IMG/VR virus record: IMGVR_UViG_3300042402_003740 | Location: 1-64,000 of that record | Origin: a virus | Strand: one strand, 5' to 3' | DNA length: 64,000 nucleotides | Shown here: positions 36,242-62,970 of the stretch, piece after piece | Position numbering within the stretch: position 1 is the stretch's first letter | Layout: every line of letters starts with the position of its first letter | The notes under the pieces: model-generated | Told to the model about the DNA's origin: nothing | Database searches by the model: none | The model's input: only the letters and a program-made list of their open reading frames with translations | Translations under genes and position numbers: made by a program

Positions 36242-36242
36242 A

Positions 36243-36332: not shown

Positions 36333-36337
36333 ATCAG

Positions 36338-36410: not shown

Positions 36411-36414
36411 AGAA

Positions 36415-36496: not shown

Positions 36497-36499
36497 TCA

Positions 36500-45547: not shown

Positions 45548-45904
45548 CTAGAATCTTCTTCTTTTTATTCTCTTGCCTATTCTTCGTGACCTTGCTGTTT
45601 TTCTGTTTATTGAGGCTTGCTTTCCTCTTCGCTTTCTAGCAGCCCTACGGAGTTTCATTTTCTTTCTACGAAGAACAGCGGCAGGAATACGACGAATTTT
45701 GCCTTTTACAAGAGTGTACCCTTTTCTTCCTGCGGTCTTGCCTCTCTTTATCTTTCCACCACGAACACGAATAATTCTTCGGACTCTCTCTAGAAGATAC
45801 TCACAATCTGCCTCTGCTGCTTCTAGAGTATCTTCAATGATACATTCATCATCTTTTTGAAGAATTTCTGCCTGTTCGAAAATGAAACTCTTGTATGATT
45901 TCAT
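45548..45904 (-). CDS. Very basic prohead-core-like protein (gp68-like) with a capsid-targeting-like leader
   Basis: MKSYKSFIFE leader, acidic propeptide ending LLE, then an Arg/Lys-rich 'RVRGGKI.R..GY...GK' region. Confidence 0.6.
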   Translation of the reverse strand: MKSYKSFIFEQAEILQKDDECIIEDTLEAAEADCEYLLERVRRIIRVRGGKIKRGKTAGRKGYTLVKGKIRRIPAAVLRRKKMKLRRAARKRRGKQASINRKTARSRRIGKRIKRRRF

Positions 45905-48198
45905 CTTTTCAACCGTTTTTCCACTATAGATGAAGCGAGTTTTGAGACTTGTTCATTCGTACTACTCTTCTTTCTCCACCCTCCACCTAGCCGTTTGTAC
46001 AGTTTGGAAGCCCATGCGTTGGAATATGCTGATGGGTGGACATCAAAGCCCTTGCCATCGTTTGGACCTGTGATGGTTTCTCCACCGTGTTCCATAGAGG
46101 ATATGCGTCCCGCCACAAGGTCTTGCACTTTGCCCCATAACTCTGGATTTGTTGGCTCGTTTTCTGATGCCTCTCCGAGGATATCGTTAACACTCTTGTC
46201 CGAACGCCACATCTGGCAAGACCAGTATCGTGCCTTCCACTTTGGACCAACATCATCATCACAAGAGTGACGAGAACGGAAAGCCTTTAGACGGTCGGGA
46301 TCATCACGCTTGATGCTCATGTTAGGATCACCAAACCGAACTTTAACAATATTTCCATTGTCGTTCTTTGTATATACAGCAAACTTCTTCTTTTCTCCTG
46401 GTGTACGGAAAGGCTTGTTTAGTGGCTTGCCCTCACCGTCCTCTTCAGTTATTGTCAATCCTGTTTTATTGTCACGAAGAGCACGCTTTATCATGTCTTG
46501 TACAGTTTTGATATCAGCAGAGAACTCCGCAACAATTCCTCGTTGCTTGTTGTGTTCTTTTTTGTCTCCTGCTTTCTTTGCTTCGTAGGCTAACTTTTCG
46601 TGTTTCTTGATGAGGTCTATAAGGTCTTTGATTGCTTGTTTCATTTCATCAACGGAAACCTCTTTGCCCTCTTGAACCTTGTTAACACCTGTGGATACAC
46701 GAACTGGCTCTGCTCCACCACCTGGTTTTCCTTCTCCTTTTTTGCCCATTCCTGCCTCCCTTTGTGCAGAACGCTTGCGACGAACAAACGATGCTATGCC
46801 TTCTTTGCCTAATTTTTGTGCTTTTTCGGGAGATAGGCAAGCGGCATATGCTTCCCCTTCATCCGCATCTCCGCATTTTCCTATTCTTTCACCCTTGCTG
46901 TTGTAACGATCCCAACCTGGTGTACCATCGGCACTCTGTCGGAACCATTTACCTAGACCAGAGTCACGATAGGTTTCTTCAATCTCTTTTCCTCTGCAAT
47001 GAGCACGCTGCGAGAAGCCTTTTGGATTTTCACAATCAATAGAATCCTTGTACTTCTGTGACCACTTTTCATTCAGAACCTTGTCAACAATGGTCTTGAC
47101 AGTTTCCACGACCGCAGGATTTTTAGGAGTTTTCTTTGTGGGTTTCTGCTGTGGTTTCTTCTCTACAGGTTTTCTGTCAGGATTTCTTCTTCTTGGTTGT
47201 TCTTGTGTTCCTATACCAGAGAATACCTTTGCGTCTTGTTCGCTCTTAAAATATCTTACGCCTTTGACATTACCCACAGATCCAGATTGGTTCTTTGCAC
47301 CAAATCCTGTTTTTGTTTGCCAAACATCGCCTGGTTTTGCTTGCATTGCAACCGTTGCCATTCCCTTTTTCTCTTTGTCTGTTGGAGTAGGCGCAGCCGC
47401 TCCTGTTGCATCTGTTGCTTTTTTGGTTTTAGTCGCCCCTGTTACACCTGTGGTTGGTGCAGCGGCTCCGGTACCACCTGAAGGCGATGTAGCCGCCCCT
47501 GTAACACCAGTTGTACCAGAGGTGGATTTGTCGGTTGTAGGAGCGACAGGCTTGCCTTTACCTTTTTTAGCACCGCTAGATTCCTGTTCTGCTGCGGCCT
47601 TTGCCCGGTCACGCATTCCTACCCAACCTTTGTCGTTTGCTTCAAGCCATGTTCTGCTCTCTTTTTGAGCGGTATCAACTCTCGCAAGGCGACGATCAAG
47701 TGCTTCGATTCTGTCGTAGTCTGGCATGGACGATGATTCTGCTTCTGCTTTTCTTGCTTGAAGTCTTTGTCTTGATTGTTCCAAGAACATTGCATGGGCA
47801 CGCTGATCGTATTTGTTTTCCGATGGCTTGAACTTTGCAGCATAGTCGGACTCTATGGACTCAAGTTTGCTCATGTTTTCGACGGCAATTTTGCGACGCT
47901 CTTTTTGCATATTAAAGCGTGCTTCCAGTTCTGTTGTGTCTCCCCCTGCTTGCTTTGTCAATTCTATGTCAGAACGAAGAGTCTCCATTTCTGAACGAAT
48001 CTCTTTTTCATTCGATGCAGCGATCTCATGTGCCATTGAGAATCTTTCACGGGCAGCACTAGGGCAATTCTTGTCCAATTGAACACCTGTGACTCTACCA
48101 GAGGCATCGCCAACAATCTTTTCTACGATAGGCGTTCTTAATAGTCTGCCTACTAGAAACTCTATTTCCTCTATGAGTTCAAGAATTTGTGGTTTCAC
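45901..48198 (-). CDS. Modular head-associated polyprotein of small T4-like domains
   Basis: Modules after IVE/LNE/IEE/VQE/ITEE/ASE: 'WSQKYKDSIDC..PKGFSQRAHC', 'GLGKWF', 'LNKPFRTPG..KKFAVY...FGDPNM...RH.C...ARYWSC', 'PTNPELW...PSAYSNAW'. Confidence 0.7.
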   Translation of the reverse strand: MKPQILELIEEIEFLVGRLLRTPIVEKIVGDASGRVTGVQLDKNCPSAARERFSMAHEIAASNEKEIRSEMETLRSDIELTKQAGGDTTELEARFNMQKERRKIAVENMSKLESIESDYAAKFKPSENKYDQRAHAMFLEQSRQRLQARKAEAESSSMPDYDRIEALDRRLARVDTAQKESRTWLEANDKGWVGMRDRAKAAAEQESSGAKKGKGKPVAPTTDKSTSGTTGVTGAATSPSGGTGAAAPTTGVTGATKTKKATDATGAAAPTPTDKEKKGMATVAMQAKPGDVWQTKTGFGAKNQSGSVGNVKGVRYFKSEQDAKVFSGIGTQEQPRRRNPDRKPVEKKPQQKPTKKTPKNPAVVETVKTIVDKVLNEKWSQKYKDSIDCENPKGFSQRAHCRGKEIEETYRDSGLGKWFRQSADGTPGWDRYNSKGERIGKCGDADEGEAYAACLSPEKAQKLGKEGIASFVRRKRSAQREAGMGKKGEGKPGGGAEPVRVSTGVNKVQEGKEVSVDEMKQAIKDLIDLIKKHEKLAYEAKKAGDKKEHNKQRGIVAEFSADIKTVQDMIKRALRDNKTGLTITEEDGEGKPLNKPFRTPGEKKKFAVYTKNDNGNIVKVRFGDPNMSIKRDDPDRLKAFRSRHSCDDDVGPKWKARYWSCQMWRSDKSVNDILGEASENEPTNPELWGKVQDLVAGRISSMEHGGETITGPNDGKGFDVHPSAYSNAWASKLYKRLGGGWRKKSSTNEQVSKLASSIVEKRLKR

Positions 48199-48449
48199 TG
48201 TCTTCCTTTCAAGTAGTTATGCACAGAGGAAAGATAATCTGCTGCCTTGGTGATCTTGGACTGTACCCATGCCTCAAGTTCCATATCTGAAGAGAGCATA
48301 TCCGATATAATACTGGCATGGTCAGAGATGTTCTTTAGTTCTCCCTTTGCCATATCTACTTCATCTCCAGGTGCATCACCTGTGGTGCTTGGATTTTCAG
48401 TCAGTATTTTGATAATTTGCTCTTGCAGCCGCTTGTTCTCATCTTGCAT
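48195..48449 (-). CDS. Small conserved T4-like helical module protein
   Basis: MAKGEL...LEAWVQSKITKAADYL; CTAAATA box at 48471-48477. Confidence 0.7.
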   Translation of the reverse strand: MQDENKRLQEQIIKILTENPSTTGDAPGDEVDMAKGELKNISDHASIISDMLSSDMELEAWVQSKITKAADYLSSVHNYLKGRQ

Positions 48450-48524
48450 AGGAAGCCCTCCGTGTATGTTTATTTAGGCTTTTTGCTAGTGAGGCGAGTT
48501 CTGTAATGTATTGGTGAAATGTTT

Positions 48525-49202
48525 TCATACTGCTACTTGATCCATTAACCATTGCGTGATGATTCTATCATCGCCGCCAAATTCATCTTTATTGCAAAAT
48601 ATAGTCTTTAGCATTTTAACTGGCTTATAGGAGATTATCTCTCTTTGATATGAAAATTGCCCTGCGAGTCTTGGTATGTTTGTATATTTGTCTGGATTCA
48701 TAAAGAATGAGTTCCGAGAGCGTTCAAGGTCAGCAATAGCAAGAATATGATAAGACTCTTTGTTTCTGCGATACATCTTACCACCAAAATCTTCCACAAG
48801 TTTGGGAAGAGCAGCGAGGTCTACAGTCCATGAAGAAACTACATTCCTTATGTTCGTATATGTGCCTCCACGGACTATTCCCCTATTTCCGCTAACAGAT
48901 ATATTAAAGTTGCTCTTCATTATGTCCACAGGTAAATCAGACATCAAGCGATATGCATATTTGTATGATTTTGGCACACGAAGAATATCAGCGTGTTTTC
49001 CTGCTTTTTGTGCTGCAATTAATTTTGGTAGTTCTTTAACCAAAGCAGCATCTCGCCCTCCAAAGTAGTGCTTTTGGAAAGCCTCCCAAGCATCTTCTTC
49101 ATCCTTTGTGTTTTTCTCTGGTGGTTGTACAACATCTGTTCGCTCTGGAGCGAACAGCACATTTCCATAGTCTTCTTTCAACCATCGTTTAAGAGATTTC
49201 AT
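48525..49202 (-). CDS. Putative ADP-ribosyltransferase (R-S-E clade, QxE) with a capsid-targeting-like leader
   Basis: MKSLKRWLKE; YAYR, VSSWT, YQREII. Confidence 0.6.
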   Translation of the reverse strand: MKSLKRWLKEDYGNVLFAPERTDVVQPPEKNTKDEEDAWEAFQKHYFGGRDAALVKELPKLIAAQKAGKHADILRVPKSYKYAYRLMSDLPVDIMKSNFNISVSGNRGIVRGGTYTNIRNVVSSWTVDLAALPKLVEDFGGKMYRRNKESYHILAIADLERSRNSFFMNPDKYTNIPRLAGQFSYQREIISYKPVKMLKTIFCNKDEFGGDDRIITQWLMDQVAV

Positions 49203-50232
49203 CTTTTTCCTTATTTTCGTGCATTAGGTTCGCATATTTTCCCTGATCTGCGATCCAGTCTTCAATGTCACCCATCTGCTGTCCTGCATCTTTCAGTTTT
49301 TTCTTCAACTTTTTCTTTGTCTTTGCTATTATTCTAGAAACAGCAGATGCTCCACTTCCAACAAGTTTCTTTACACCCTTGACCAAAGCCGTACTCTCTT
49401 CCATAGAGTTTTGTCCATTTAGTGCTTTGGATAGACCATTAACAGCAGACTCATAATTATCAAGAGAAATAGAAGACTTTGCTCCTGCAAGTTTTAGTCT
49501 CCCCTGTACACGATATCCAACAGAACGATAGGGCTTACCGCCAGATCCTGCTGGTCCTGGACGCATCTCTATGTCGATGTCTCCCTCAAGCATGGGAACC
49601 CCAAGACCCAACACATCATTGCCTGTATGGAAGAGTCCCATTCCTCCAATTTGAATGTAATCCACATTCTTCTTCTGATAGTGTTGACGAATCCATTGTG
49701 CATTGTATCGTATCTTCTTGTTTGTTGGAATAATAAGTCCCGCTTTCTTGGCGGCTTCCCAATCCTTGTTCTTTACCTTTAGTGGGAAGCCCAATCCTTC
49801 TTCAGTATCGTAAAAAGGATCGCCAAGAGAAGAGAAGTGGTCCAGGAGTTTGTCAAGATACTTTACAACAGGGATAAGAGCATTAGAGAACATCTTCACA
49901 TCTTCTTCTTTGATTTTGGTAAAATCAAAACGGTCTACAAGACGATCAGGGAATGACCCAACGAACCCGTCTGCATCTCGTTCATAGTTAATAGATGTAC
50001 CGCCCATCTGTGCGTTTCCGTCCATCTTGATCTCCATGTTAATGGTTTGACCATTGATGGTAAAAGAAGCATCTCCGGATCCAGCAGATGAAAATGCTCC
50101 ACCAGCACTCTCTATTCTCTTGAAATTAGGATACTCTTTGGCGAGTCTGTCCATGACAGCCTCTACCTTTTTCTCATAATTCACTCCACCCATTCCTACA
50201 GTTTCTGTGATATATTCTTTGAAAAGTTTCAT
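49189..50232 (-). CDS. PD-(D/E)xK-like protein with a capsid-targeting leader (paralog A)
   Basis: MKLFKEYITE; YE...GD...EIK; CTACATA box upstream. Confidence 0.6.
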   Translation of the reverse strand: MKLFKEYITETVGMGGVNYEKKVEAVMDRLAKEYPNFKRIESAGGAFSSAGSGDASFTINGQTINMEIKMDGNAQMGGTSINYERDADGFVGSFPDRLVDRFDFTKIKEEDVKMFSNALIPVVKYLDKLLDHFSSLGDPFYDTEEGLGFPLKVKNKDWEAAKKAGLIIPTNKKIRYNAQWIRQHYQKKNVDYIQIGGMGLFHTGNDVLGLGVPMLEGDIDIEMRPGPAGSGGKPYRSVGYRVQGRLKLAGAKSSISLDNYESAVNGLSKALNGQNSMEESTALVKGVKKLVGSGASAVSRIIAKTKKKLKKKLKDAGQQMGDIEDWIADQGKYANLMHENKEKDEIS

Positions 50233-50368
50233 CTGTTGCTCCTGAATTGATGTTTATTCAGGAGTATGTAGGCTTGGGCTATTCTATAAAAGGAGGAGAT
50301 TGCATACCATACCTCCCTGTATGTGTTTTCTAAATCCTATAATATCTAGGATTATTTGGATTTAGAGA

Positions 50369-51160
50369 TCATTTTATAAGATGAGAGAGTGTTTTCACCG
50401 CTGATTCGTAGTCATCAAGAGTGTGTTCCATTTGCACCATGCTGAACTGTATTCTTCCTTGTACTCTTAATCCAACACCACGAACCAAACCATATCTTGA
50501 AGGCTTTGATCCAGAAGCACCTGCTCTGATTTCAACACGAATATTTCCATTCAAAAGAGGAACAGGAAGATGTAGTGGATTTTTACCAGTATGAAACAAT
50601 CCACATCCTCCTATCTGAATATAGTCTACACCTTTTGAAAGATAGTGGTTTCTTATAAAACTAGCGTTTTCTTCAATAAAAGCATTTATTGGTTTTATTA
50701 GACCTCTAGAAGTAGCAATGCTCCATGCCTCTTTTCCCACTACCATTGGAAACCCTTCTATGTTCTGATGGACCTCAAATGGATAAGATGCTTTTAGTTC
50801 TCCAATTAGTTTTTCTATTGCGTCTGATTTTGAATTCAAGACTGCACGATATATGTCTATCATTTCTGGTTCTATTCCCTCTGACTTTAGGAAAGAAAAT
50901 CTTTCTTCCTTGGGAAGGGAAGAACGATATCTCACAGAGGTTCCTCCCATCTGTGCCTTTTTGTTCATTTTTATTTCAATATAATATTTCTGCCCATTTA
51001 TTTTTAGAGTGAGATCTCCTGATCCTGCACTAGAAAAACCTCCACCCACATCCTCTAGAACAGAAAGTTTTGGAAAGTTTTCTGACACCTTTTCACATAC
51101 GGATCTAACATCTTTTTCATACGCTAAAGATTTTTGTGTTTGTTTTGTTTTCTCTTCCAT
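50369..51160 (-). CDS. PD-(D/E)xK-like protein (paralog B)
   Basis: YEK...FSSAGSGD...EIKM...AQMGGTS...VDYIQIGG.GLFHTG shared with paralog A. Confidence 0.6.
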   Translation of the reverse strand: MEEKTKQTQKSLAYEKDVRSVCEKVSENFPKLSVLEDVGGGFSSAGSGDLTLKINGQKYYIEIKMNKKAQMGGTSVRYRSSLPKEERFSFLKSEGIEPEMIDIYRAVLNSKSDAIEKLIGELKASYPFEVHQNIEGFPMVVGKEAWSIATSRGLIKPINAFIEENASFIRNHYLSKGVDYIQIGGCGLFHTGKNPLHLPVPLLNGNIRVEIRAGASGSKPSRYGLVRGVGLRVQGRIQFSMVQMEHTLDDYESAVKTLSHLIK

Positions 51161-51166
51161 TTTGTT

Positions 51167-52792
51167 TCATCCATTTGGATTTCCAAGCATTTGCTTTAGG
51201 TGTTTCTTTCCACCTATTGCCCGAACATATTGTCCGTTGCCTTTCCACTCTATTTCTTTTCCACGAAGTACTCTACGAACAATAGACTCATCGTCTACGA
51301 CTGGCGCACCACGGGATATAAGTATGTCGAGTATTTTTCCGCTTGCTTCGCCATAACTCCCCTGTGTCTTGAGAATGTCTACGGCTTTCTTCAGCACCTG
51401 TCGCTTGGCTTCGGCTCCACCATCGGAACCAATTGTTGTCATCTTCTTGCCGAAAAGTGTGGTCTTTGAGAGTATAGCCGCATCCACATCATCGGGTTCG
51501 TCTGTGTCTATGACATCGGTGATATTGTTGTCCGCAGGAACAGAGTCGGCATTGGGAAAATCAGGATGACCACCGACAGGAGCATAGGCGGCATTGACGA
51601 TATCAAAGATGTCTCGCTGAACATCAGTGTTCTTACGAACCTCTGCGGTTGCCAGAGATTTCCACTGGTCTTTATTTCGCACAACACCACGCCCTGCCTC
51701 TGCAATGAAAGTCTTGAATGAAACGATGCTCTCGCCTATGACATCATAGATGCGGTAGCCCGGATACTTGCGCTTTAGTTCTGCAAATATTCTGTCAAGT
51801 CCACTACTAGAGAATTTTGCCCCGTCTTCGCTTGTGGCACTAATGACCTTGCGCTGGTGGTCAATTCTTCCCTGCACAACAGGAGTAACAGAGCGTTCAA
51901 TCTTCAGCAACTCTGGAAAGACATCCTCATGGGTATCACGAACAGGGTCTTTTGGACTGCGTATTGTTACACGGGTCATGCCTTTTGATGGCTTTATTTC
52001 TGATGAAGCAATCCACAGTTCAGGAATCTTGCCCCCTGTTGATACTCCCCATACCTTTTGACGGATACGCTCCATCTCCTGCTCTTGGTCTTTTTCATAT
52101 GGTGAAACGGAGTGTCCGTAGTCAAGATATGCACCCGCAGTATCAACCATGTCTCCAACAATATCAGGGTGCATTTTCAATACATCACGCACCACTTGTT
52201 CTGTTTCCCGTTTTGTCTTCTTTACTGTATCCCTAGTGGATTTCTTGCGGGCTTCGCTCTCACGACTCCATCCAAGCGCATCGGTAATAATATCCTTGTG
52301 ATCGAATGCAAGGCGTGGAAGACGCTTCACAGAAATCCACTTTGCATCAACAGCATCATCCTGTCCACGCACACGCTGACCCATCTCTGCGGGAAGAGTG
52401 ATGGTGTATGCATACGAGATTGACCATGCTGTTTTCGTATCACGGGGATCTCGACCGCCTCCCTTGTATATTCCAACCGAACGCAATTTCGAGCGCATCT
52501 CTGCTGGAATCTTCAACCCTGTCTCTTCCTCTAGTTCACGGAGTGCAGCATCGGCAATGGATTCTGTCTGTCCTGCCTTCCACTCTCCTCCTGCCTTTGC
52601 GGTGGTGTTTACGAATCCACCTGGTATTGCCCACTTTCCGCCTTCGGTCTTGCCAGGTTTACGCTTGATGAGCAGTACCTCAAGTCCTCCATCTTTTGCA
52701 GGACGGAATACCACAAGATCTACCGTTGGATTTGCTCCTGTATAGCGGTAGCCCTCTTTGGCTTCGGTGATGAAGTGTCTAAAGTCTATCAT
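51167..52792 (-). CDS. Nudix hydrolase (ADP-ribose pyrophosphatase-like) fused to further modules
   Basis: Start MIDFRHFITE (ATGA-coupled); TVDLVV, WAIPGGF...AALRELEEETGL, RDPR, DDA, LAFDH; the C-terminal module is paralogous to 52789-53346. Confidence 0.85.
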   Translation of the reverse strand: MIDFRHFITEAKEGYRYTGANPTVDLVVFRPAKDGGLEVLLIKRKPGKTEGGKWAIPGGFVNTTAKAGGEWKAGQTESIADAALRELEEETGLKIPAEMRSKLRSVGIYKGGGRDPRDTKTAWSISYAYTITLPAEMGQRVRGQDDAVDAKWISVKRLPRLAFDHKDIITDALGWSRESEARKKSTRDTVKKTKRETEQVVRDVLKMHPDIVGDMVDTAGAYLDYGHSVSPYEKDQEQEMERIRQKVWGVSTGGKIPELWIASSEIKPSKGMTRVTIRSPKDPVRDTHEDVFPELLKIERSVTPVVQGRIDHQRKVISATSEDGAKFSSSGLDRIFAELKRKYPGYRIYDVIGESIVSFKTFIAEAGRGVVRNKDQWKSLATAEVRKNTDVQRDIFDIVNAAYAPVGGHPDFPNADSVPADNNITDVIDTDEPDDVDAAILSKTTLFGKKMTTIGSDGGAEAKRQVLKKAVDILKTQGSYGEASGKILDILISRGAPVVDDESIVRRVLRGKEIEWKGNGQYVRAIGGKKHLKQMLGNPNG

Positions 52793-53346
52793 AGTGGGTT
52801 TCCTACCATCATCTTTGTCATCCGTTTTCCACCAGAGAAGGTTCGGGTATACCAGCCATCGCCTTCCCATCCATCCATCTTGCCGTGCCATTCGAACTCT
52901 ACCTTTGGGTCACTCTTGACGATCTTCTCTACACGCTTTGGATCGTTGATAGGCTTTACTCCCATGCCCATGAGTATCTGTGCGGGTCTTCCTGATATTT
53001 CGGTATAGTTCCCACGAACAGAGAGTATATCCTTTACCCGCTTCATCATCTGACGCTTCGCTTCCTGCGAACCGTCTGTTCCCATGCCGTGTATAATTCT
53101 ACCTTTACCCCTTTGCTGTGTGAGTATGACAGCATCAATGGCAGAATCATCATCGGTATCTATGACATCAACATCATCGGTTCCCACAGGATCAGAAGAG
53201 GTAAACTGCCTATGTCCCGTAGGAAACTGTGAGTATACAGACTGTAGAATCTCTCCAATCTGCTTGGCAACATCGGTGTTTCCCTTTACCTCGTTGTTCG
53301 AAAGGGTAGACCATTTTCCCTTGATGTAGCCTTTAAAACTCTTCAT
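52789..53346 (-). CDS. Hypothetical protein with a capsid-targeting-like leader; paralog of the Nudix C-terminal module
   Basis: MKSFKGYIK; DVIDTD...DA, G.DG..EAKRQ, Y.E.SG, Y.R...G...K.M.GNP. Confidence 0.7.
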   Translation of the reverse strand: MKSFKGYIKGKWSTLSNNEVKGNTDVAKQIGEILQSVYSQFPTGHRQFTSSDPVGTDDVDVIDTDDDSAIDAVILTQQRGKGRIIHGMGTDGSQEAKRQMMKRVKDILSVRGNYTEISGRPAQILMGMGVKPINDPKRVEKIVKSDPKVEFEWHGKMDGWEGDGWYTRTFSGGKRMTKMMVGNPL

Positions 53347-54749
53347 TCAATTCTTTCCATTTTTTCAGGCATATCCGAACCCAAGATGTCTTGTAGTTCA
53401 TCAAATACCTCGTTGTACTTCTTTACAAGTTCAACCCATGTTTGGTTTACATATGCCTTTGCAGGAGTTTTTGTACCGATCTTTACAACCCGTGTAACTT
53501 CTGTTTCTCTTCCAACAGAGTTTTTTGTTCCTAATTTGTTTGCAAACCATTCAGAAAAGATACAGCCATCATCTGTAGGCATGGTGTAAACAATGGGTAC
53601 ATTCATGCCCTCCATTATTTCTTTGTATGCATAATCCATTGTTCTAAGTATGGAGCGGACGATACTCTTTTTCTCGGATTTTGATGCGGCTTTGAAACCA
53701 TTTGCCTGTTTGAGAATGAACTTAAGTTCTGGTGATGGGAGTACCGATACCGATCCACCAAACAAACCTTCTTGTGTTGCGAAATTGGCTGCTACTGCTG
53801 GTTCTGCTGCCCAACTCTGTATGGCTCTGTTCGCCTTGTACTCTACAGGAACACCAACATATGTTTTTGCCTTCTTTCCACTACCGATTTCCAATAGGTC
53901 TTTGGATTTTAGCAATCTATCCAAGGGTAGGATTCTTTTTGCAACACTACCGTCAACTCCTATTCCACGCCATACCACACTAACAGTTGGTTCGAATTCG
54001 TTTGGATAGTCTTTGACACATTTCTTGATAAACTCGAAATCTGCAACCATCTTGTTGTCGGCGTGTCCATCACTGTACATTGCATCTCCACCTACCCAGT
54101 CGCTAACACTCATCTCTATTTCGTCTTCTCTTTTGGTGTTCTGTTCACGGCTTCTGTATTTTCCCTGCTCTATTCCAAATACTAGACGCTGAAACACCTT
54201 TGTGCATGGGTTTTTGTTGAATTCTTTTTCCTTCTCTCTTTTCTCTTTGATTTTACCCTTTTGGCCTTCAAGTTTCTCAATCGAAGTCTCTATGGACTTT
54301 CTCATCTTTGTATTCTCTTTTTGCCACTTGGCTAGACCTGTCTTTTTTATCTGATTGACTCTGCTTGCAGGAAAGTCCAGAAGAGATCCAGACCTGTCGT
54401 CAAATCCCAACTGGCGCACATTATCCTTAAAGTTGCCAATAAGCGGATAGACTGCTGGTTCCAATCCAATTCCTTCATCAAAGAACAGTCTCACGAGGTC
54501 TAGTCCTGACTTCATTACACCTCTAAACCACTTACGCTCTTCCTCCTTGGTCATGTCAGAGAACCAAGGAGGAAGATCTCCAATCTTTTTGGATGCCTCT
54601 TGGAGTTCTCCAATGGCTTCACGAAGAGAGCCGCTCCGCTCCCCTGGCGGTTCGCAACCGCAACGGGCAATGGCATCCCGCACGGATTCTCCCGTGTCGG
54701 TATCCACTCCACGAAGAACATCAAGAACTATGGCTCTCCATGACCGCAT
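53343..54749 (-). CDS. Putative ADP-ribosyltransferase (R-S-E clade, ExE) with an N-terminal helical domain
   Basis: VVWRG, IQSWAAEPAVAANFA, RETEV. Confidence 0.65.
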   Translation of the reverse strand: MRSWRAIVLDVLRGVDTDTGESVRDAIARCGCEPPGERSGSLREAIGELQEASKKIGDLPPWFSDMTKEEERKWFRGVMKSGLDLVRLFFDEGIGLEPAVYPLIGNFKDNVRQLGFDDRSGSLLDFPASRVNQIKKTGLAKWQKENTKMRKSIETSIEKLEGQKGKIKEKREKEKEFNKNPCTKVFQRLVFGIEQGKYRSREQNTKREDEIEMSVSDWVGGDAMYSDGHADNKMVADFEFIKKCVKDYPNEFEPTVSVVWRGIGVDGSVAKRILPLDRLLKSKDLLEIGSGKKAKTYVGVPVEYKANRAIQSWAAEPAVAANFATQEGLFGGSVSVLPSPELKFILKQANGFKAASKSEKKSIVRSILRTMDYAYKEIMEGMNVPIVYTMPTDDGCIFSEWFANKLGTKNSVGRETEVTRVVKIGTKTPAKAYVNQTWVELVKKYNEVFDELQDILGSDMPEKMERIE

Positions 54750-54752
54750 GGG

Positions 54753-55142
54753 TTATCCTCCGTAGGCTACGCCCCGCACAAAGAAGTGGTCTTCGTGACT
54801 GGTGAATCCAAAGCACTCCCGTGCATACTCTATGACAACTGCTGGATCAAACTTCTTGCAGGAGTACAGGTCGAGGGTAATGAAATGGGTGGGTTCAATC
54901 GAATGGATCTGTATGCCACTCTCTATGAGGGGAACCCATCCGCTCACTCCTGCCTTCTCGGGATACACTTCAACACCGTTTTGTGTTGGTGCATGGATAA
55001 CCACAGGCTGACTCATGCGTGTCATGCCGATTCGGTCCACCAGACGCTCAAGAAAGCGATAGGTCAACTCCATGTCATCGGCTGTGCCGGGCTTGCACCC
55101 GTACATATCAAGGTAATATGAATACCCGAAAGGTTTTTTCAT
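54753..55142 (-). CDS. speD: S-adenosylmethionine decarboxylase-family (pyruvoyl) proenzyme
   Basis: LDMYGC, GMT, GVSG..PLIES, IH..E, LDLYSCK.FD. Confidence 0.75.
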   Translation of the reverse strand: MKKPFGYSYYLDMYGCKPGTADDMELTYRFLERLVDRIGMTRMSQPVVIHAPTQNGVEVYPEKAGVSGWVPLIESGIQIHSIEPTHFITLDLYSCKKFDPAVVIEYARECFGFTSHEDHFFVRGVAYGG

Positions 55143-55972
55143 TCGAGTGGACTCCCATCCATGTAGAGGTTTCTACAGACCCAGCCGTAGTCGCCTTCTT
55201 CCATCTTCTTCTGGGCAGTGTTCATTCTGTCTTTCATCATTCCGAGACGCTTGTCCTGTAGGAACTTGATGTGGTCTTCAACCATTTTGATGCTTTTCTT
55301 CCAACTGTTCATGCATTGGATTGCCTCACGCTTTTCGGATGCGCTTTCGTGCATAGTCTCCTCGTATCCCATAAAGGGTCTTGGCTTCTTGTTGCAATCC
55401 TTGCCTTTGCATGGCTTTGGCTTTGGTTTGCCCTTTCCACCCTTCATAGGCTCGACCACGGCATCGTCACCGTACATACGGGAATCTGTTTCGTGGAGAG
55501 GGGCTTCTGATTCTTTCAGGGAGTTTCCTTCCTGAACGGCACGGTATGCCCTTGCCAGTGATTCCAAAAGGTCGGCTTCGGTGCGGTCGGTCTGTACAGA
55601 ATTTGCAGGAGCGGGTGGAACCCCGCCTCCAAGAATGGTCTGCACCATCTGTGCTGTTTCGCTCTTTGCTATGCGCTCAAATTCGTTGTTTGTCTCCATC
55701 GCTCTACCTTCCTTTATTCCTAGTTTATTTAGTGCTGCTTCCCGTTGTCCTATCCCTGCGAGTGCCTCTCTTGGCGACTTGAAGTGTCCTACAGGGACCT
55801 GTGAATCGTCTGGAACTCCACGCCCACTGGTGTCGCCCTTGTAGAGCAGGAACGCTCCAGGACTAGGCTCATGGAGAAAGTACCAGTTCTTCCCAGAACG
55901 GGTCTTCCAGCCCATAACAACACCCATGCCCTGGTTTAGTCCTGCAATAACTGATTTTTGCCATTTATTCAT
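55139..55972 (-). CDS. Hypothetical modular protein, probable internal restart at 55699
   Basis: Several LxE/MHE linkers; internal CTAAATA box and AAGGAAGG SD before METNNEF. Confidence 0.6.
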   Translation of the reverse strand: MNKWQKSVIAGLNQGMGVVMGWKTRSGKNWYFLHEPSPGAFLLYKGDTSGRGVPDDSQVPVGHFKSPREALAGIGQREAALNKLGIKEGRAMETNNEFERIAKSETAQMVQTILGGGVPPAPANSVQTDRTEADLLESLARAYRAVQEGNSLKESEAPLHETDSRMYGDDAVVEPMKGGKGKPKPKPCKGKDCNKKPRPFMGYEETMHESASEKREAIQCMNSWKKSIKMVEDHIKFLQDKRLGMMKDRMNTAQKKMEEGDYGWVCRNLYMDGSPLE

Positions 55973-55973
55973 T

Positions 55974-56948
55974 TCATTTTACTCCGTATTGCTTGTCTAT
56001 TGATGCCCATTCACCCTTGCAGAAGTCTACGACTGCCTGTATGTAGGCGGTAATCTCGTTCGGGGTGATCTTGCCCATAGAGGGGTTGAAGCCGCTGCCT
56101 TTGCCCAGGCGACCCACACGCTCCATCTTGCCGATGCTCTTCTTGAAAGCCCTGGCAATGGCATCAACACGGGCAGGATCGAATTGCTCAGAAGTGCCGT
56201 CGTTCCTGCCGTAGTACTGGTTTGACCCGTTCTGTAGACCCGAGAGCACGGACATGACCATCTCTAGGCGGCTCATTGCCATGTCGCCGCTCTTCCAGTC
56301 TTTCAAGACCTCTTGTGCATAGACAAGCCACTCCTTGCGGTTCCTGAAACTCTCTGGCATCATGCGAAAGTGCTTCTGTGCCATTGTCTCGGGCTTGCCT
56401 GGTTTCTTCTCGTTTCCCCCAGCCTCGTCCAGTTCGACCGATTCTCCTACAAACTTCTTGCCCCGACCGCTCTTGAGGAATCCGTGTAGCCATGCCTGTG
56501 GATCTTTGCTGCCTGGATAGGTCTGTGGCAGTGGTTTACCGTGCAGTTCTCCGGTGATGCCCCCAAAGTAGTCTTCGTATTCCATAAAACCCACCTTTTT
56601 GCCACCCTTCAGGATGTCATAGTGGGTTGTGGACTGTGTGCCGTCCTCTGTTTTTTTCTTTTCCACCTTGGTTTTCTTTAGAGAATACTCCCCGACACCT
56701 TCGTGCAACCCAAGGGATTCCTTCACCACCTGTATCCCCTTGTAACGGCTCCGCACCAATTCTGCACCTGTAAGAACATCCACAAGATCCTCATAGTGGT
56801 AGTCTGTTGCAACAGCCTCGCTTGAATAGGGTCCCGCTACCTTCATCTTGCCACCAGACTTGTACACGGCATAGTACCCTTCAGGGTCAACCTTGCCTAT
56901 TCCTCTGGCGGCTTCGTCTAATCTTCTAATATCCTTGAATCGCTTCAT
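55974..56948 (-). CDS. Modular protein with a capsid-targeting-like leader; shares a module with the 22687-25365 protein
   Basis: MKRFKDIRRLDE; linkers ESLGLHE and ESVELDE. Confidence 0.7.
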   Translation of the reverse strand: MKRFKDIRRLDEAARGIGKVDPEGYYAVYKSGGKMKVAGPYSSEAVATDYHYEDLVDVLTGAELVRSRYKGIQVVKESLGLHEGVGEYSLKKTKVEKKKTEDGTQSTTHYDILKGGKKVGFMEYEDYFGGITGELHGKPLPQTYPGSKDPQAWLHGFLKSGRGKKFVGESVELDEAGGNEKKPGKPETMAQKHFRMMPESFRNRKEWLVYAQEVLKDWKSGDMAMSRLEMVMSVLSGLQNGSNQYYGRNDGTSEQFDPARVDAIARAFKKSIGKMERVGRLGKGSGFNPSMGKITPNEITAYIQAVVDFCKGEWASIDKQYGVK

Positions 56949-57814
56949 CTCTGCTTCTCCTCTAAATATTGGCTGTTGTAATCTTCGAATTTACGCAGTA
57001 CCGCCTCTCTGCCGTCAAAAACCTGTAGTTTTTGCTCTGGTGTAAGCAGCCGCCAGGCACCTGGTGACATTAGTGTTTCCCTACCATCGGTTGTTTTTTC
57101 TGCTAGTGGAACATAGCAGCGGCACTGTATTGGGGTCTTCTCTAATCTTACAATTTCAGACTCTGCGGGGTTTCCAAAGTGGACAAGATTAAGGCTTTCG
57201 TCCGGGGATATCTTGTACTCTAGAACAAAGTGTATGCGTTGCTGTTTCATCTGGTCAGACCACCAACTGTCTGTGACCCCTGTAAAGTCGCCTGTTGCAA
57301 ATCCTAGTGCCACTCTCTGTTCTGTCGTCCATGACTGTGCAACCGACCGGGCCTCGTAGCGTAGGGTTCCCTCTGCACACTGTAGTGGTCTTTTGCCCCT
57401 GTACAGGGTTGTGATTCTTTCAAATTTGAATGCATTGGCAAATCTCTTCACTCCAAACCCTTCGCCACGGTACACATTCCCGCTGTATCGTAGCCACGAT
57501 CCAGTCTTTCCACACCCCTGTATCATTCTCTTTATACGAAGAACAAGATCTTCAGGGGTGTAGTCCCGTTGAGCCTTGAATCCCATCATCCACTTGTTCA
57601 TGGTGTCTGCAAGCCCTGCAATCTCTTCGTTCTTTGCCTCTTTTGCTGCCCTCTCTATCCATTGCCAGCCTTTGCCTCTAAAATGGTCAATAGGAGAACC
57701 CTGAAACAGAGGAGGATTTGACCCGCCCAAGAGATGACACAACCCACGGGAGAAATCTATCTCTCCTCCACTCTTTGACTCTAGTATCTCTATGAATTGG
57801 CGGTAGCGTTTCAT
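56945..57814 (-). CDS. Putative ADP-ribosyltransferase (R-S-E clade, ExE) with a capsid-targeting leader
   Basis: MKRYRQFIEILE; VYRG, AQSWTTEQRVALGFA, AESEIV. Confidence 0.7.
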   Translation of the reverse strand: MKRYRQFIEILESKSGGEIDFSRGLCHLLGGSNPPLFQGSPIDHFRGKGWQWIERAAKEAKNEEIAGLADTMNKWMMGFKAQRDYTPEDLVLRIKRMIQGCGKTGSWLRYSGNVYRGEGFGVKRFANAFKFERITTLYRGKRPLQCAEGTLRYEARSVAQSWTTEQRVALGFATGDFTGVTDSWWSDQMKQQRIHFVLEYKISPDESLNLVHFGNPAESEIVRLEKTPIQCRCYVPLAEKTTDGRETLMSPGAWRLLTPEQKLQVFDGREAVLRKFEDYNSQYLEEKQR

Positions 57815-57815
57815 A

Positions 57816-58265
57816 TTAGTCGTCTACAGGTTCGTCGTGACCAGAGTGTGGATTGTACCGGGTCAGAGGGGTTCTGCGCCGTGACCGCTCACGCTCACGC
57901 TCGTCTCTTTCCCGCTCCCGCTGCCCCCGATCCCGCTCCTCGGCATCACGGCGGCTCTGGGCTTCACGCCCTGGTCGCTTCTTTCCCTCTACCCAATCGC
58001 TTGCATCGCTCCAGTTATCGAAATAGCGGAATTCGTCCTCCCACCGTGCACGGTATCGGGTTCCCCCACCTGTCTCTACCTCGTCAACCGAGCCGCTTCT
58101 CTGCCTTTCCTTCCCCTGGCGGTCTGCTGACTCCTCACCAGAGGTCTGTGCCCTCTTTGCCTTTTCGATTCCTAACTTGCGTCCAACCCGTATGGCTGTG
58201 TCACGGACTATGCCCTCTTTCAGAGTCTTGTCTACAGTTCTTCTAAATTCGGTGTAGTCTTTCAT
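57816..58265 (-). CDS. Arg/Glu-rich hypothetical protein with a capsid-targeting-like leader
   Basis: CATACATA late box at ~58301-58308, CAGGAG SD, MKDYTEF...LKE. Confidence 0.65.
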   Translation of the reverse strand: MKDYTEFRRTVDKTLKEGIVRDTAIRVGRKLGIEKAKRAQTSGEESADRQGKERQRSGSVDEVETGGGTRYRARWEDEFRYFDNWSDASDWVEGKKRPGREAQSRRDAEERDRGQRERERDERERERSRRRTPLTRYNPHSGHDEPVDD

Positions 58266-58389
58266 CCCGATCTCCTGTGTGTATTGCAGCCTTTTCCTAT
58301 ATGTATGAATACCCATTTTCTCCTCCAGAAACGGTTAGGGTTCCATTAGGAGGGTTAAAAAAGGCTTAAAAAAGGGGGTTGAGCGTGCA

Positions 58390-58701
58390 CTAACGGGGGG
58401 AAGGGGGATTGAATCCACCAGTACCGCTGTTGTATTCGATTCCTTCAAGTGATTTGCGGAATTCAACGGCTCTTTTCTCGGATTCGATCATCGGTGGTGG
58501 TTTGGGTGGGACGAATGGGAATCCCATGCGGGTGAGTGCGGGAGGCATACGGACACGGGGACGCTGCTGCCCCCAGCCACCCCAGACAGCGGGAGGCGGG
58601 GGATTCATATTAATAGGAAGATGGGGCTGCACTGCACCATTAAGATGCGCCTTCCGAGCCTCTTCACTCTGTAGCCATTCGTTGTATTTACTGCGGTCCA
58701 C
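58390..58701 (-). CDS. Pro-rich hypothetical protein (start uncertain)
   Basis: GTG start overlapping the end of the FmdB-like gene. Confidence 0.4.
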   Translation of the reverse strand: MDRSKYNEWLQSEEARKAHLNGAVQPHLPINMNPPPPAVWGGWGQQRPRVRMPPALTRMGFPFVPPKPPPMIESEKRAVEFRKSLEGIEYNSGTGGFNPPSPR

Positions 58702-58984
58702 TTCGGGTTCCCCTTTGCGAAAGCGAGCGGTCAATGTTCTCACGGACTCGGGGGTTGTACTTTCCGAGTTTGGAGCGCATGGCTTCCATTCTCTCTTTAA
58801 AAGCACCCGAGGGTTTAACGCTGCCATCCACACCCATAGTGGGGGAGTGTGACCACCCACGGACCACTTGGGGCTTGCCGCATTGGGGGCAGGGTTCACC
58901 GCAGGGCTTCTCTCGGTTTGCTATGGTTTGGATATCGTCCCACTGGTGGGCGCAATGGCGGCACTCGTATTCATAATTAGGCAT
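58688..58984 (-). CDS. FmdB-family zinc-ribbon protein
   Basis: MPNYEYECRHC...PCPQCG; GGAG SD. Confidence 0.8.
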   Translation of the reverse strand: MPNYEYECRHCAHQWDDIQTIANREKPCGEPCPQCGKPQVVRGWSHSPTMGVDGSVKPSGAFKERMEAMRSKLGKYNPRVRENIDRSLSQRGTRSGPQ

Positions 58985-59420
58985 AGGCTTTTGCTCCTCT
59001 ACGGGTATATAGTGGGGAATGGGGAGGGGGTAAATTCTCCAGAGTGGGGGGTAAATTGTGGGGGGCAGGGTATTCATAGGTTTTGTGTAGTGTGTGCAGG
59101 CTGAACTATTCCGAATGGGATCGAAAGGGGCAAATGCGGGTGGTTTTGAACCAAAATCACCAGATTCTGGTAAAATCAGCCAAAATTCTTCATTTTTACC
59201 ATTTCAGGCGTCCTGGGGTGACCAGGCACGCCCGGTGAGCCCGGTGAGCCCGGTGAACCTGGTCCAGCGATTTTCGAAATATTGGAATTTCGGCTAAAGT
59301 CTGCATTCCGTCCAGTCGATACCAGTAGAGCGAAGGCAAGAGATAGGGGAGGAATTCCACAGAATCTCGGATACGGATATCCGTGATTACCTGACAGAAC
59401 CCTAACAGGAGGGGCATTGG

Positions 59421-59528
59421 GGGTCCGATAATATCGCCCGCCCCGCCGTTTGCTGTAAGTCCTTATAAGACAGAGATTTACGCTGTTTTAGGGGTTGGGC
59501 TTGCATCCTGCGCCCGTTCGGGTATACT
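59421..59528 (+). promoter_or_regulatory. Probable early promoter module: 13-mer, GC box, 27-bp dyad, TTGCAT-N16-TATACT
   Basis: Elements shared with 62854-62963. Confidence 0.6.
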
Positions 59529-59610
59529 TGTGGGACGGGAATTCTACGCCCAGAGGGCATAATTCCTAAAAACTGCCGAATTCTGACTTTTTCTCAAAAA
59601 GACCAAAACC

Positions 59611-61956
59611 ATGCGAAACACGAAGAATACCGTTAATACCGTCCGTGAGGCTACCGCTCGACTTCTCGCCACCGAGAACATCACGGTCATCGAAGACCCG
59701 AAGGCTCCTTCGGCGTACTTCGACCTCAAGTCTCGTACCCTTGGCCTTCCTGTGTGGAAGGACATCACGCAGGAAATGTACGATATGCTTGTTGGTCACG
59801 AAGTCGGCCATGCCCTCTTCACGCCGAACGGAAACGGCGGTTGGGTTGAGTCTGCAAAGCGCATCGCTGCGGATGCGGGTTTCGCTGGCGACCGTGAGGC
59901 GGAAGCCGCTGCACAGTCGTTCCTCAATGTTGTTGAGGATGCCCGTATCGAGCGTCTCATCAAGGAACGCTACCCCGGTCTGCGTCGTGACTTCTTCACT
60001 GCGTACACGGAGTTTGCGAAGCGTGACATCTTCAAGATTGGTGGCCGTCCCCTCAGCGGTCTTGGTCTTGCCGACCGCCTGAACATCCACTTCAAGATCG
60101 GCTTTACGCAGCCTGTGCCGTTCTCCCCTTCGGAGCGCCAGTTCGTGGAGCGCATGGAGACGGCTGTGACTTGGGAAGAGGTTGTTGCGATTGCGAACGA
60201 TCTTTTCGAGTTTGAGTCGAATCCGCAGGGCAATCAGGGACAGGGCAGCACCCCGTCGAACCCCGGCGAGGGTGAAGAGGGCGAAGAGGGTTCGGCTTCG
60301 GCTTCGGGTAAGGGTGAGGGCAACGAGATGGGTCAGTCGGGCAAGGGCAAGGCTGACGACCAGACCAGTGGCGAGTCGGGTACTGGTGATGCTGATGGCG
60401 AGGGCGAATCGCAGGGCGAATCGCAGGGCGAATCGCAGTCTGAGGGTACGGACGCTTCGGGTAATGATGGCGACTCGGAGTCGCAGTCGGATGGTGACAC
60501 TGACATCAACGATACCCGTGATGGTTCAACCACGGAGCGCACTCGGGGTCATGGCGTGAACACGGCCCCCGTGAAGCCCCGTACCGCACAGACTGCGGGT
60601 TCGCTTGACAAGGCTTCGTCTGATCTTCGTGACCAGAATGCCCGTGGTCGCAACTACCTCTACATTCCTCGGGCGGTGAAGCCTGAAGGCTTCGTCATCC
60701 CGTTCGGGGAATTCATTGGTGCGTGTCGCCAGTGGGAAGCAAGCGGTCTGAAGAATCCTACCTACGGCAGCGACCCGAAGATCCGCAAGCGTTCGATTGA
60801 GGCGGTGGACAAGCAGATTCGTGACCTGGTCGAGGACACCCGTGGTTCGATCCAGGCGTTTGTCCGTGAGTTTGAGATGCTGAAGACTGCGGACGAACAC
60901 CGCCGCACTGTGGAGTCGAAGAGCGGTCGCCTTGACATGGATCAGGCGTGGAAGTACCGCATCTCGGAAGACCTCTTCAAGGTTGCTACGACGATGCGTG
61001 ACGGCAAGAACCACGGCTTTGTTATGTTTATTGACTGGTCGGGTTCGATGCAGCCGAACATGGAGCAGACGATGCGCCAGTTGTACATCCTCTTCCAGTT
61101 CTGCAAGAAGGTTGGCATCCCGTTTGATGTCTACGCCTTCGGTATCGGCCTCACGGATCGCTCGATGTTCCCGTCGCTTGAAGAGACGGGACGCAAGGCG
61201 AATCGCCTGGTGCTTGACGACAAGCGCAACGAAGTTCAGCCTGATGTGGAACTCCTCCACATCATGTCGAGCCGTGCGAACGCTCGGGATCTTCAGGATG
61301 CGTTCCGCTACTGCCTCTGCGCTACGAGTTACGGATACGGCGACTACCCGCCCGTGACCCTTGGCGGCTCGACTCCGCTTGACTCGACCGTTGTTGTCGC
61401 TCGGGACATTGTGAACGAGTTCCGCAAGGGGACGAAGGTGCAGATCGTCAACACCGTGTTCCTCACGGACGGCGATGCGACCGATGGCCTCTGCAACTAC
61501 GGAACGAAGGGACACCAGCACTACGCTGGTCCGACGATTCTTCGTGACGGCCACCGTGAGTGGGCTTCGGAGAATGCAATGTACAGCGGTGGTACTGCTC
61601 TCCTGCTCCAGTGGTTCAAGGCGAACACGGGAGCAAATCTTGTGGGCATCTTTGTGGCGGGTCGCTTCGGTCATGCGACTCACCACTTCGACCCGTCGAT
61701 GAAGCAGGAAGACCGTGCGCTTGCGGAGAAGCAGTTCAAGAGCGACGGTTGGTGTTCGGTGAAGGGTCTTGGGTTTGACCAGTACTTTGTCCTCCGTGGC
61801 AATGTGGTCGATACCGAGAAGGCGATGGACGAATTCGAGCAGCGTGACGGTGGCACGATGACCGCCACGCAGATCAAGAATGCGTACATGAAGGCGGTCG
61901 AGAGCCGTAATGGTGCCCGTGGCATGATCCACCGTTTCGTCAAGACGGTGGCCTAA
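59611..61956 (+). CDS. HExxH metallopeptidase-like + acidic linker + vWA (CobT-like) protein
   Basis: GHEVGH, NVVEDARIE, DWSGSM MIDAS, GSTPL, LTDGD. Confidence 0.85.
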   Translation: MRNTKNTVNTVREATARLLATENITVIEDPKAPSAYFDLKSRTLGLPVWKDITQEMYDMLVGHEVGHALFTPNGNGGWVESAKRIAADAGFAGDREAEAAAQSFLNVVEDARIERLIKERYPGLRRDFFTAYTEFAKRDIFKIGGRPLSGLGLADRLNIHFKIGFTQPVPFSPSERQFVERMETAVTWEEVVAIANDLFEFESNPQGNQGQGSTPSNPGEGEEGEEGSASASGKGEGNEMGQSGKGKADDQTSGESGTGDADGEGESQGESQGESQSEGTDASGNDGDSESQSDGDTDINDTRDGSTTERTRGHGVNTAPVKPRTAQTAGSLDKASSDLRDQNARGRNYLYIPRAVKPEGFVIPFGEFIGACRQWEASGLKNPTYGSDPKIRKRSIEAVDKQIRDLVEDTRGSIQAFVREFEMLKTADEHRRTVESKSGRLDMDQAWKYRISEDLFKVATTMRDGKNHGFVMFIDWSGSMQPNMEQTMRQLYILFQFCKKVGIPFDVYAFGIGLTDRSMFPSLEETGRKANRLVLDDKRNEVQPDVELLHIMSSRANARDLQDAFRYCLCATSYGYGDYPPVTLGGSTPLDSTVVVARDIVNEFRKGTKVQIVNTVFLTDGDATDGLCNYGTKGHQHYAGPTILRDGHREWASENAMYSGGTALLLQWFKANTGANLVGIFVAGRFGHATHHFDPSMKQEDRALAEKQFKSDGWCSVKGLGFDQYFVLRGNVVDTEKAMDEFEQRDGGTMTATQIKNAYMKAVESRNGARGMIHRFVKTVA

Positions 61957-61969
61957 AAGGAGGAATCGC

Positions 61970-62425
61970 ATGGCGCAATCAGGACAGGCTCTGTTGGAGA
62001 ACGCACGGGTGCAAGAGTTCCTGTCCCTGGTGCGTTCACAGTGCCGCAAGTGTAATGTCAAATTCGTGCTTGCCGATGCGGAGTTTGTCGGCAGCAAGAA
62101 GCAAGGGGAGCAACTGCTTGGGTTCTTTTGGGAACCCTCGCTACACCGCAGGGCACCAGGCGAACTGCGTGTGGCAACAAAGAACCTGCCTGTAAGCGAG
62201 TGGATCGTTACCCTCGCACATGAGTACGCACACTTTCTACAGTGGTTCCGAGATGATCCTGTTTACCATTGTGACTCTTATCTGGAGATGGAGATCGCAA
62301 CAGAGCGTGAAGCATTCGAGATCCTGAAGCGTTTCAAGATCCCCATCAACTACGAAACGGCGAAGCGCAAGTCAAAGAAGTACATTGCGAAGATTCGTCG
62401 TGAGGAAAAGGAAAACACCCTATGA
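61970..62425 (+). CDS. HExxH metallopeptidase-like protein (IrrE/ImmA-like)
   Basis: TLAHEYAHFLQW...E..TEREA; AGGAGG SD. Confidence 0.65.
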   Translation: MAQSGQALLENARVQEFLSLVRSQCRKCNVKFVLADAEFVGSKKQGEQLLGFFWEPSLHRRAPGELRVATKNLPVSEWIVTLAHEYAHFLQWFRDDPVYHCDSYLEMEIATEREAFEILKRFKIPINYETAKRKSKKYIAKIRREEKENTL

Positions 62426-62850: not shown

Positions 62851-62853
62851 ACA

Positions 62854-62963: not shown

Positions 62964-62970
62964 CTTCGAT

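Follow-up and report, generated by a model that had tools for sequence, protein, structure and literature searches.

Three divergent ADP-ribosyltransferase-like proteins and a Nudix protein in a candidate capsid-cargo island of a distant T4-like phage

Why would a phage keep three ADP-ribosyltransferase (ART)-like genes with different catalytic signatures close to a gene for an ADP-ribose-type Nudix hydrolase, and when during infection would their products act? The question is raised by the IMG/VR virus record IMGVR_UViG_3300042402_003740 (92,327 bp; CheckV completeness estimate 43%), of which the first 64 kb, hereafter the window, were analyzed. A preliminary description of this DNA had proposed that two ART-like proteins with an E-x-E (ExE) motif, one with a Q-x-E (QxE) motif and the Nudix protein, all encoded between positions 48,525 and 57,814 (Table 1), form a dedicated writer-plus-trimmer system. 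The comparisons reported here uphold the identity of these proteins, and they indicate another explanation for their proximity. The main clue to the deployment of the proteins is a set of N-terminal leaders resembling the capsid-targeting sequences of T4, which had been overlooked in the preliminary description. Altogether, we favor with moderate confidence a reading in which a T4-like phage carries an island of internal-protein-type cargo, whose three ART-fold enzymes and Nudix protein would be loaded into the head and enter the host by injection.

The three ART-like proteins

The motifs that had been ascribed to the three genes are all present in their minus-strand translations, namely YAYR, SSWT and QRE in the 225-residue QxE protein (P0001), WRG, the QSW...FA block and ETE in the 468-residue ExE protein (P0002), and YRG, the QSW...FA block and ESE in the 289-residue ExE protein (P0003). 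The conservation of these residues across homologues identifies the R-S-E motifs as real features and not as chance triads. An exhaustive HMMER search with P0003 recovered 19 relatives, a word-based homologue search returned the protein itself and nothing else, and searches for the genomic context of the relatives yielded one near-identical contig in IMG/VR and none in the metagenome collection. The alignment of P0003 with 18 homologues shows no substitution at R116, G117, Q160, S161, W162 or F172, while E218 and E220 are close to invariant. The relatives of P0001 (n = 21) extend down to 46% identity, and the alignment of 19 homologues shows R85, S124, W125, T126 and Q186 to be invariant and E188 nearly so, with Asp in one sequence. 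The signature of P0002 consists of R261-G262, S312-W313 and E415-x-E417, all six residues being invariant in its subfamily, with a helical insert of about 60 residues past the S-W strand; the N-terminal half of this protein is partly coiled.

Predicted structures provided a link to known enzymes. The AlphaFold2 model of P0003 reached a predicted local distance difference test (pLDDT) score of 88.3 and a predicted template modeling score (pTM) of 0.84, and the model of P0001 a pLDDT of 70.9 overall and of 80-94 in the core. Foldseek comparisons with the PDB gave weak rows only for both models (E about 1e-2 to 1e-1), several of the top rows for P0003 being ARTs. In the VIA all-against-representatives search, nearly every top row for P0003 was an ART, including the Vis toxin (Z 6.2), HopU1 (5.1) and Tre1 (4.9) as well as XopAI, CPILE-a, diphtheria toxin, Certhrax, TreX, Arr, ART2.2, iota-like, C3, C2-I, pertussis toxin, SpvB, ExoS and VIP2, and a second comparison lifted the value for Vis to Z 6.4 (142 residues, 3.6 A). 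For P0001, all of the top 50 PDB rows belonged to the ART superfamily, among them CC0527 (Z 6.2), KptA/Tpt1 (5.6), Scabin (5.3) and ScARP (5.1), with further rows of LT, cholera, pertussis and Plt toxins, TreTu, CARDS, MTX, DarT and MbcT. Fold comparison of predicted structures, which had been suggested as a check of the ART assignment, therefore returned ARTs almost exclusively for P0003 and exclusively for P0001 (Z 5-6.4). Besides, the matches of the P0003 model in BFVD include fusions with MuF, portal and minor-capsid proteins.

Both models display the ART split beta-sheet, with moderate Z, and the conserved residues occupy equivalent places in it. According to DSSP, a long strand contains the Arg (R85 within strand 82-91 of P0001 and R116 within strand 112-121 of P0003), the S-W pair lies in the next short strand, which is followed by a helix (S124 within 123-126; S161 within 160-163), and the second Glu starts a strand past a loop (E188 in 188-191; E220 in 220-223). 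Such placements of Arg, Ser and Glu are classical in C3, iota and cholera-type enzymes. Since the Z values are moderate, the ART assignment relies on the uniformity of the match lists, the coverage of the domain and the location of the conserved residues.

At the level of sequence the three proteins stand apart from curated families. The ART models of Pfam, NCBIfam and PHROGs matched neither the three proteins nor 37 homologues, PDB profile searches with the three proteins gave no match, and T4 Alt showed no relation to the profile of either the P0003 or the P0001 family (hhalign probability about 0.1%). The ART fold of P0002 is assigned by homology to P0003 only: residues 206-326 of P0002 align with the P0003 family profile with a hhalign probability of 90% (E 1.4e-6; hmmsearch 2e-12), which bears out the earlier suspicion that these two genes are paralogous. 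The P0003 family profile gave no significant match to P0001 or to the P0001 family. In the related metagenome contig L012, in which the gene order of the island is preserved, an additional 244-residue protein (11927-12661, plus strand) encoded directly downstream of a P0001 homologue bridges the ExE and QxE families. It is a member of the P0002 subfamily (E 1.6e-19) in which Q-R-E replaces E-x-E, and its match to P0001 extends across the Arg and S-W-T motifs (phmmer 8e-5 among the open reading frames, or ORFs, of the contig). A combined profile of the P0003 family, the P0002 subfamily and this bridge protein aligned with the P0001 family over 169 columns (E 3.1e-4, probability 39%), with the Arg, the S-W pair and the [E/Q]-x-E motif in register, and the link of P0001 became significant only once the P0002 subfamily and the bridge protein had been added to the profile. 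Taken together, the profile and motif comparisons indicate that the three genes diverged as paralogues within a single phage-specific ART-like superfamily, which contains ExE as well as QxE forms and whose apparent hallmarks are R-(G), S-W and [E/Q]-x-E-[V/I]. The earlier view of three divergent ART-like genes, two ExE and one QxE, therefore stands, with the fold modeled for P0003 and P0001 and taken from homology for P0002, and with R, S and [E/Q]-x-E conserved throughout.

The leader-tagged island and its Nudix protein

The three genes belong to an island of about 12 kb in which most of the encoded proteins begin alike, with untagged genes interspersed. The consensus of the island leader is M-K-x-[F/Y/W]-[K/R]-x-[F/W/Y]-[I/L], usually followed a few residues later by [L/I]-x-E; in T4 (NC_000866), ipII and ipIII start with M-K-T-Y-Q-E-F-I-A-E and ipI with M-K-T-F-K-E-F. 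A strict form of the leader pattern was found in 7 of the 558 six-frame ORFs of the 92-kb record, and all seven lie between 45.5 and 57.8 kb. The expected number of matches was 0.67, and no more than 4 were seen in any of 300 shuffles. Three further fits occur at internal or revised starts, in the Nudix protein, in the ORF starting at 58265 and in one ORF at about 86.6 kb. In P0001, P0003, the Nudix protein and the ORFs that start at 45904, 50232, 56948 and 58265, the first 10-18 residues include an [L/I/V]-x-E site. Of 18 P0003 family members encoded by other phages, 15 carry the leader as well, and those P0001 homologues without it start at the very residue that the predicted cut after L-K-E would expose. 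Moreover, a related 150-kb contig (G001) encodes a gp21-type prohead protease (Peptidase_S77, PF03420, E 5e-42). The internal proteins of T-even phages are a diverse anti-defense set in which the capsid-targeting sequence is the only common part (PMC3012670). Because a leader resembling the capsid-targeting sequence of T4 stands at the N-terminus of most island proteins, these are most likely head-packaged, protease-trimmed and injected cargo.

The Nudix protein is a fusion whose most likely start is the internal Met at position 52792, directly past the stop codon of the upstream ORF, and not position 52891. The longer ORF (51167-52891) matched the Pfam NUDIX family with an E value of 6.2e-16, and its NCBIfam matches, which are its best curated ones, to the Nudix half of bifunctional NadM-Nudix enzymes (9.5e-14) and to NrtR (2.5e-11) are far below the equivalog cut-offs and hence inform on clade placement only. 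Matches in the PDB were 3i9x (2.7e-11), 2fml, the Synechocystis NadM-Nudix protein 2qjo (2.3e-7), human NUDT9 (1.4e-6), an NrtR-family regulator and the Shewanella NrtR 3gz5. The RDPR, DDA and LAFDH motifs by which a NadM-Nudix/NrtR-type protein had been recognized earlier were found and aligned with the same residues in 3i9x; the RE-x2-EE catalytic box is intact, and the preceding loop carries a 12-residue insertion relative to 3i9x and 2fml. These sequence matches place the protein in the NadM/NrtR clade of ADP-ribose-type Nudix proteins. A second leader-like motif opens its residues 391-572, a segment that shares 36% identity with the adjacent 185-residue leader-bearing protein (BLASTP E 4e-33).

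Other genes of the island are of different kinds. An untagged gene for an S-adenosylmethionine decarboxylase (SpeD-like, Pfam 6.6e-17) lies between ART genes and is kept in the related contigs L012 and L015. Two neighboring genes of phrog_26930, the first of them leader-tagged, are paralogues (42% identity, E 9e-55) with a D...E-x-K pattern, for which a PD-(D/E)XK nuclease-like fold was suggested by eye only.

Table 1. Features of the window, with positions counted from its first nucleotide.
Feature	Position	Strand	Details
Cargo island	45548..58265	-	Leader-bearing ORF starts: 45904, 49202, 50232, 52792, 53346, 54749, 56948, 57814, 58265
P0001, 225-residue QxE ART-fold protein	48525..49202	-	10-residue leader ending L-K-E; R85, S124-W125-T126, Q186-x-E188
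P0002, 468-residue ExE protein	53343..54749	-	C-terminal ART-like domain at about residues 206-440 (about 53430-54134)
P0003, 289-residue ExE ART-fold protein	56945..57814	-	Capsid-targeting-like leader ending I-L-E; R116-G117, S161-W162, E218-x-E220
Nudix fusion protein	51167..52792	-	Leader, Nudix domain (about 52286-52729), basic linker, middle region, second leader-like motif, C-terminal module (about 51176-51721)
185-residue leader-bearing protein	52789..53346	-	Paralogous to the Nudix protein's C-terminal module
phrog_26930 gene, leader-tagged	49189..50232	-	
phrog_26930 gene, second	50369..51160	-	
SpeD-like gene	54753..55142	-	
Tubulin/FtsZ-family GTPase gene	18962..20185	-	Pfam Tubulin 2.8e-11
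892-residue NMNAT-like protein	22687..25365	-	N-terminal cytidylyltransferase/NMNAT-like domain (phrog_3041, phrog_395)
DUF6267 protein	25492..26745	-	417 residues
tRNAs and tmRNA	36170..36827; 26777..26928	-	Four tRNAs beside the tmRNA, two elsewhere
Giant ORF, 2,869 residues	27175..35784	+	No PHROG match
Giant ORF, 1,531 residues	38800..43395	+	No PHROG match
Region past the island	58000..64000		G+C 0.53-0.59

A possible course of infection and its alternatives

Under the packaging reading, the leader would dock the island proteins onto the scaffolding core of the prohead, and a gp21-type prohead protease would then remove it after [L/I]-x-E, so that the mature proteins could stay inside the head and be ejected together with the DNA. 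On entry, the three ART-fold proteins would act on targets in the host by consuming its NAD+ (nicotinamide adenine dinucleotide). The two ExE enzymes would ADP-ribosylate host proteins, most likely on arginine, and the QxE enzyme P0001 would use a different acceptor, most likely not arginine. Among the structural matches of P0001, Scabin and ScARP are QxE enzymes. The Nudix protein, with its catalytically intact box, could hydrolyze free ADP-ribose, small molecules derived from it or NAD-type caps early in infection. An extension of this scheme, which we regard as speculative and rather improbable, would have the whole kit act before the phage genome is expressed: the QxE enzyme would ADP-ribosylate nucleic acid or another non-protein acceptor (compare Scabin, ScARP and DarT), the Nudix protein would destroy NAD caps or immune signals made from ADP-ribose while the DNA is entering, and the change from ExE to QxE, seen also in L012:11927-12661, would mark a repeated retargeting of the fold to new acceptors.

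Several observations weigh against this reading. P0002 and the 185-residue protein bear the leader with no clear [L/I]-x-E site nearby, neither a prohead protease nor head genes were found on the 92-kb fragment (itself estimated as 43% complete), and the T4 late-promoter motif is absent from the window or present at chance level. The structural Z values of 5-6.4 are under 8, the caution line of the tool, below which values can reflect common arrangements, profile comparison by itself ties P0001 only weakly to the families of P0002 and P0003 (probability 39%), and an ART-like fold does not guarantee that NAD is bound, as CNFy D4 (DUF4765) illustrates (PMC7883292). Active ARTs and a Nudix protein could instead be used in the cytoplasm in the manner of T4 ModA/ModB, the common N-terminus not being a packaging signal, and the lack of head genes, protease and late promoters in the window would agree with this, as would the two leader-bearing proteins that have no obvious cleavage site and the position of the island next to replication and early-looking genes. 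However, the leader fits the residue pattern of the T4 internal proteins and mostly ends in [L/I]-x-E, it is restricted to the island, and it is N-terminal in the homologues of other phages, while exactly that segment is missing in some P0001 homologues; besides, the internal protein genes of T4 itself also lie away from the head genes. Cytoplasmic use thus appears unlikely to us. Less likely still is that at least one of the three proteins is an ART-fold pseudoenzyme or a plain NAD+ glycohydrolase, for example a structural internal protein or an NAD-depleting factor. The modest Z values and the lack of a sequence match to any curated ART family would suit such a protein, and the protein-atlas leads include DUF4765 and DRAT in the case of P0003 and DUF4765 in the case of P0001, DUF4765 being the ART-like D4 domain of CNF toxins, of which the CNFy D4 did not bind NAD (PMC7883292). 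Yet R, S and [E/Q]-x-E are strictly conserved over sequences that are 20-45% identical, which argues for a maintained active site.

The proposal that the ARTs and the Nudix protein form one writer-plus-trimmer module, in which the Nudix protein recycles ADP-ribose, trims the marks or destroys ADP-ribose-type immune signals, has to be judged from the related contigs. It draws on the situation of the Nudix gene between the ART genes and on the ADP-ribose clade of its product, and in the closest related contigs (G003, L012 and L014) the Nudix gene still adjoins P0002-like and P0001-like genes. The set is nevertheless broken up in more distant relatives. L004 and L016 (about 50% identity) have two ART genes with one other cargo gene and no Nudix gene between them, and in G001 (83% complete) the gene for a stand-alone, leader-tagged Nudix protein of 175 residues is separated by 9 kb from a P0001-like gene that has no leader, and there is no ART of the P0003 or P0002 type. 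Other neighbors in the island are unrelated cargo. Moreover, Nudix enzymes cleave the pyrophosphate bond and leave phosphoribose on the protein, so that the mark is not erased. With cargo sets differing in this way among G001, L004 and L016, a dedicated system is not supported, and we find a fixed module doubtful. The stable feature is the leader together with the island, and the cargo is variable, so that the ARTs and the Nudix protein appear to share one island because of a common capsid-targeting leader and not as members of a fixed module. In L004, a 1,532-residue ORF lies upstream of the cargo island in a position equivalent to that of the 1,531-residue ORF of the window.

Phage background, known systems and significance

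The gp43-like DNA polymerase encoded in the window shares about 50% identity with the polymerases of T4-like cyanophages and is matched by 2,671 phage records, most of them T4-like phages that infect enterobacteria or cyanobacteria. The window also encodes gp32, gp59, UvsX, primase, a DnaB/gp41-type helicase and ribonucleotide reductase. No DNA or protein similarity to the ART/Nudix region was detected among 50,697 phage records (tblastn and megablast). Given the T4-type replisome genes and the absence of any phage record similar to that region, the source is an uncultured, distant T4-like phage with a genome of roughly 200 kb. Six transfer RNAs (tRNAs) and one transfer-messenger RNA (tmRNA), the latter with the tag peptide ANTVRLAA, are present in the window. 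The Tubulin/FtsZ-family GTPase gene possibly encodes a PhuZ/TubZ-type phage tubulin. Adjoining the DUF6267 gene, an 892-residue protein carries a nucleotidyltransferase-type domain related to NMNAT; phrog_395 unites an NMNAT-like half and a NadM-type Nudix half, which are separate proteins in the present phage. A complete NAMPT plus NMNAT salvage pair was considered and rejected, since the 417-residue neighbor is the DUF6267 protein and gave no NAMPT match. Past the island, the G+C content climbs from about 0.41-0.46, and this region contains a gene for a 781-residue peptidase-family protein (phrog_459, E 5.5e-158) and a DUF5710 protein.

Close parallels are found in T4. As in the case of Alt, ModA and ModB, the proteins described here are ART-fold proteins with R, S and ExE in a T4-type phage, with several paralogues per genome. 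Alt is a head-packaged and injected mono-ADP-ribosyltransferase, and the present ART-fold proteins are probably also carried in the head and would act at infection. They differ from Alt in being smaller (225-468 versus 682 residues), in that one paralogue is of the QxE type and in bearing an internal-protein-type leader, which the N-terminus of Alt lacks. The island resembles the T4 internal proteins IPI, IPII and IPIII in the residue pattern of the leader, in most cases in its predicted gp21-type [L/I]-x-E end, and in the occurrence of unrelated proteins in a variable locus (PMC3012670). Whereas those proteins are small basic proteins or restriction inhibitors, the predicted cargo described here is enzymatic, with the ART fold, a Nudix domain and probable nuclease-like proteins, and its packaging is proposed from the leaders. 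In T4 (NC_000866, L007), the ADP-ribose-active Nudix gene nudE (5036-5491) is situated two genes from ipIII and ipII, which echoes the layout of a Nudix gene beside internal-protein-type genes. Virion-packaged ART, Macro, NADAR and Nudix proteins have been predicted in myoviruses (Iyer, Burroughs, Anantharaman and Aravind, 2022; PMC9503650), and the concept is alike in that ARTs and an ADP-ribose-processing Nudix protein enter with the DNA, modify host molecules and counter NAD-derived signals. In that study, packaging was deduced for the most part from fusions to MuF or portal proteins and from neighborhoods of head genes, while here the tag is a short internal-protein-type leader; furthermore, the packaged Nudix proteins predicted there belong to the T4 NudE clade, and the one described here to the NadM clade, detached from any nicotinamide mononucleotide adenylyltransferase.

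Comparison with bacterial enzymes gives a similar picture of likeness in fold and distance in sequence. P0003 shares with the Vis toxin of Vibrio splendidus the ExE signature and an N-terminal helical lobe before the catalytic core, but its identity to Vis and to the C3/VIP2/iota group is only 12-13%, it has S-W-T/S instead of S-T-S, and it gave no match to Pfam PF03496. Scabin, ScARP and KptA/Tpt1 are among the tied top structural matches of P0001 (Z 5.1-5.6), which is equally tied with the protein-modifying pertussis, cholera and LT-type toxins, and the protein has no sequence relation to KptA/Tpt1 or to the guanine-specific ARTs Scabin, ScARP and pierisin.

The general strategy, represented by T4 Alt and the internal proteins, is already known, and the gain from this locus lies in breadth and testable detail and not in a new principle. 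What is new are unnamed and uncurated ART families that are unrelated by sequence to Alt and have been missed by Pfam, PHROGs and NCBIfam. The natural difference between ExE and QxE in three small and easily expressed proteins offers a clean system for the study of shifts in acceptor specificity, and the substrate of the tagged Nudix protein of the ADP-ribose clade could reveal what the phage must remove on arrival. Overall, injected phage enzymes precede phage transcription, and proteins such as these would influence how infection proceeds in its first minute and how the phage contends with bacterial immunity based on NAD.

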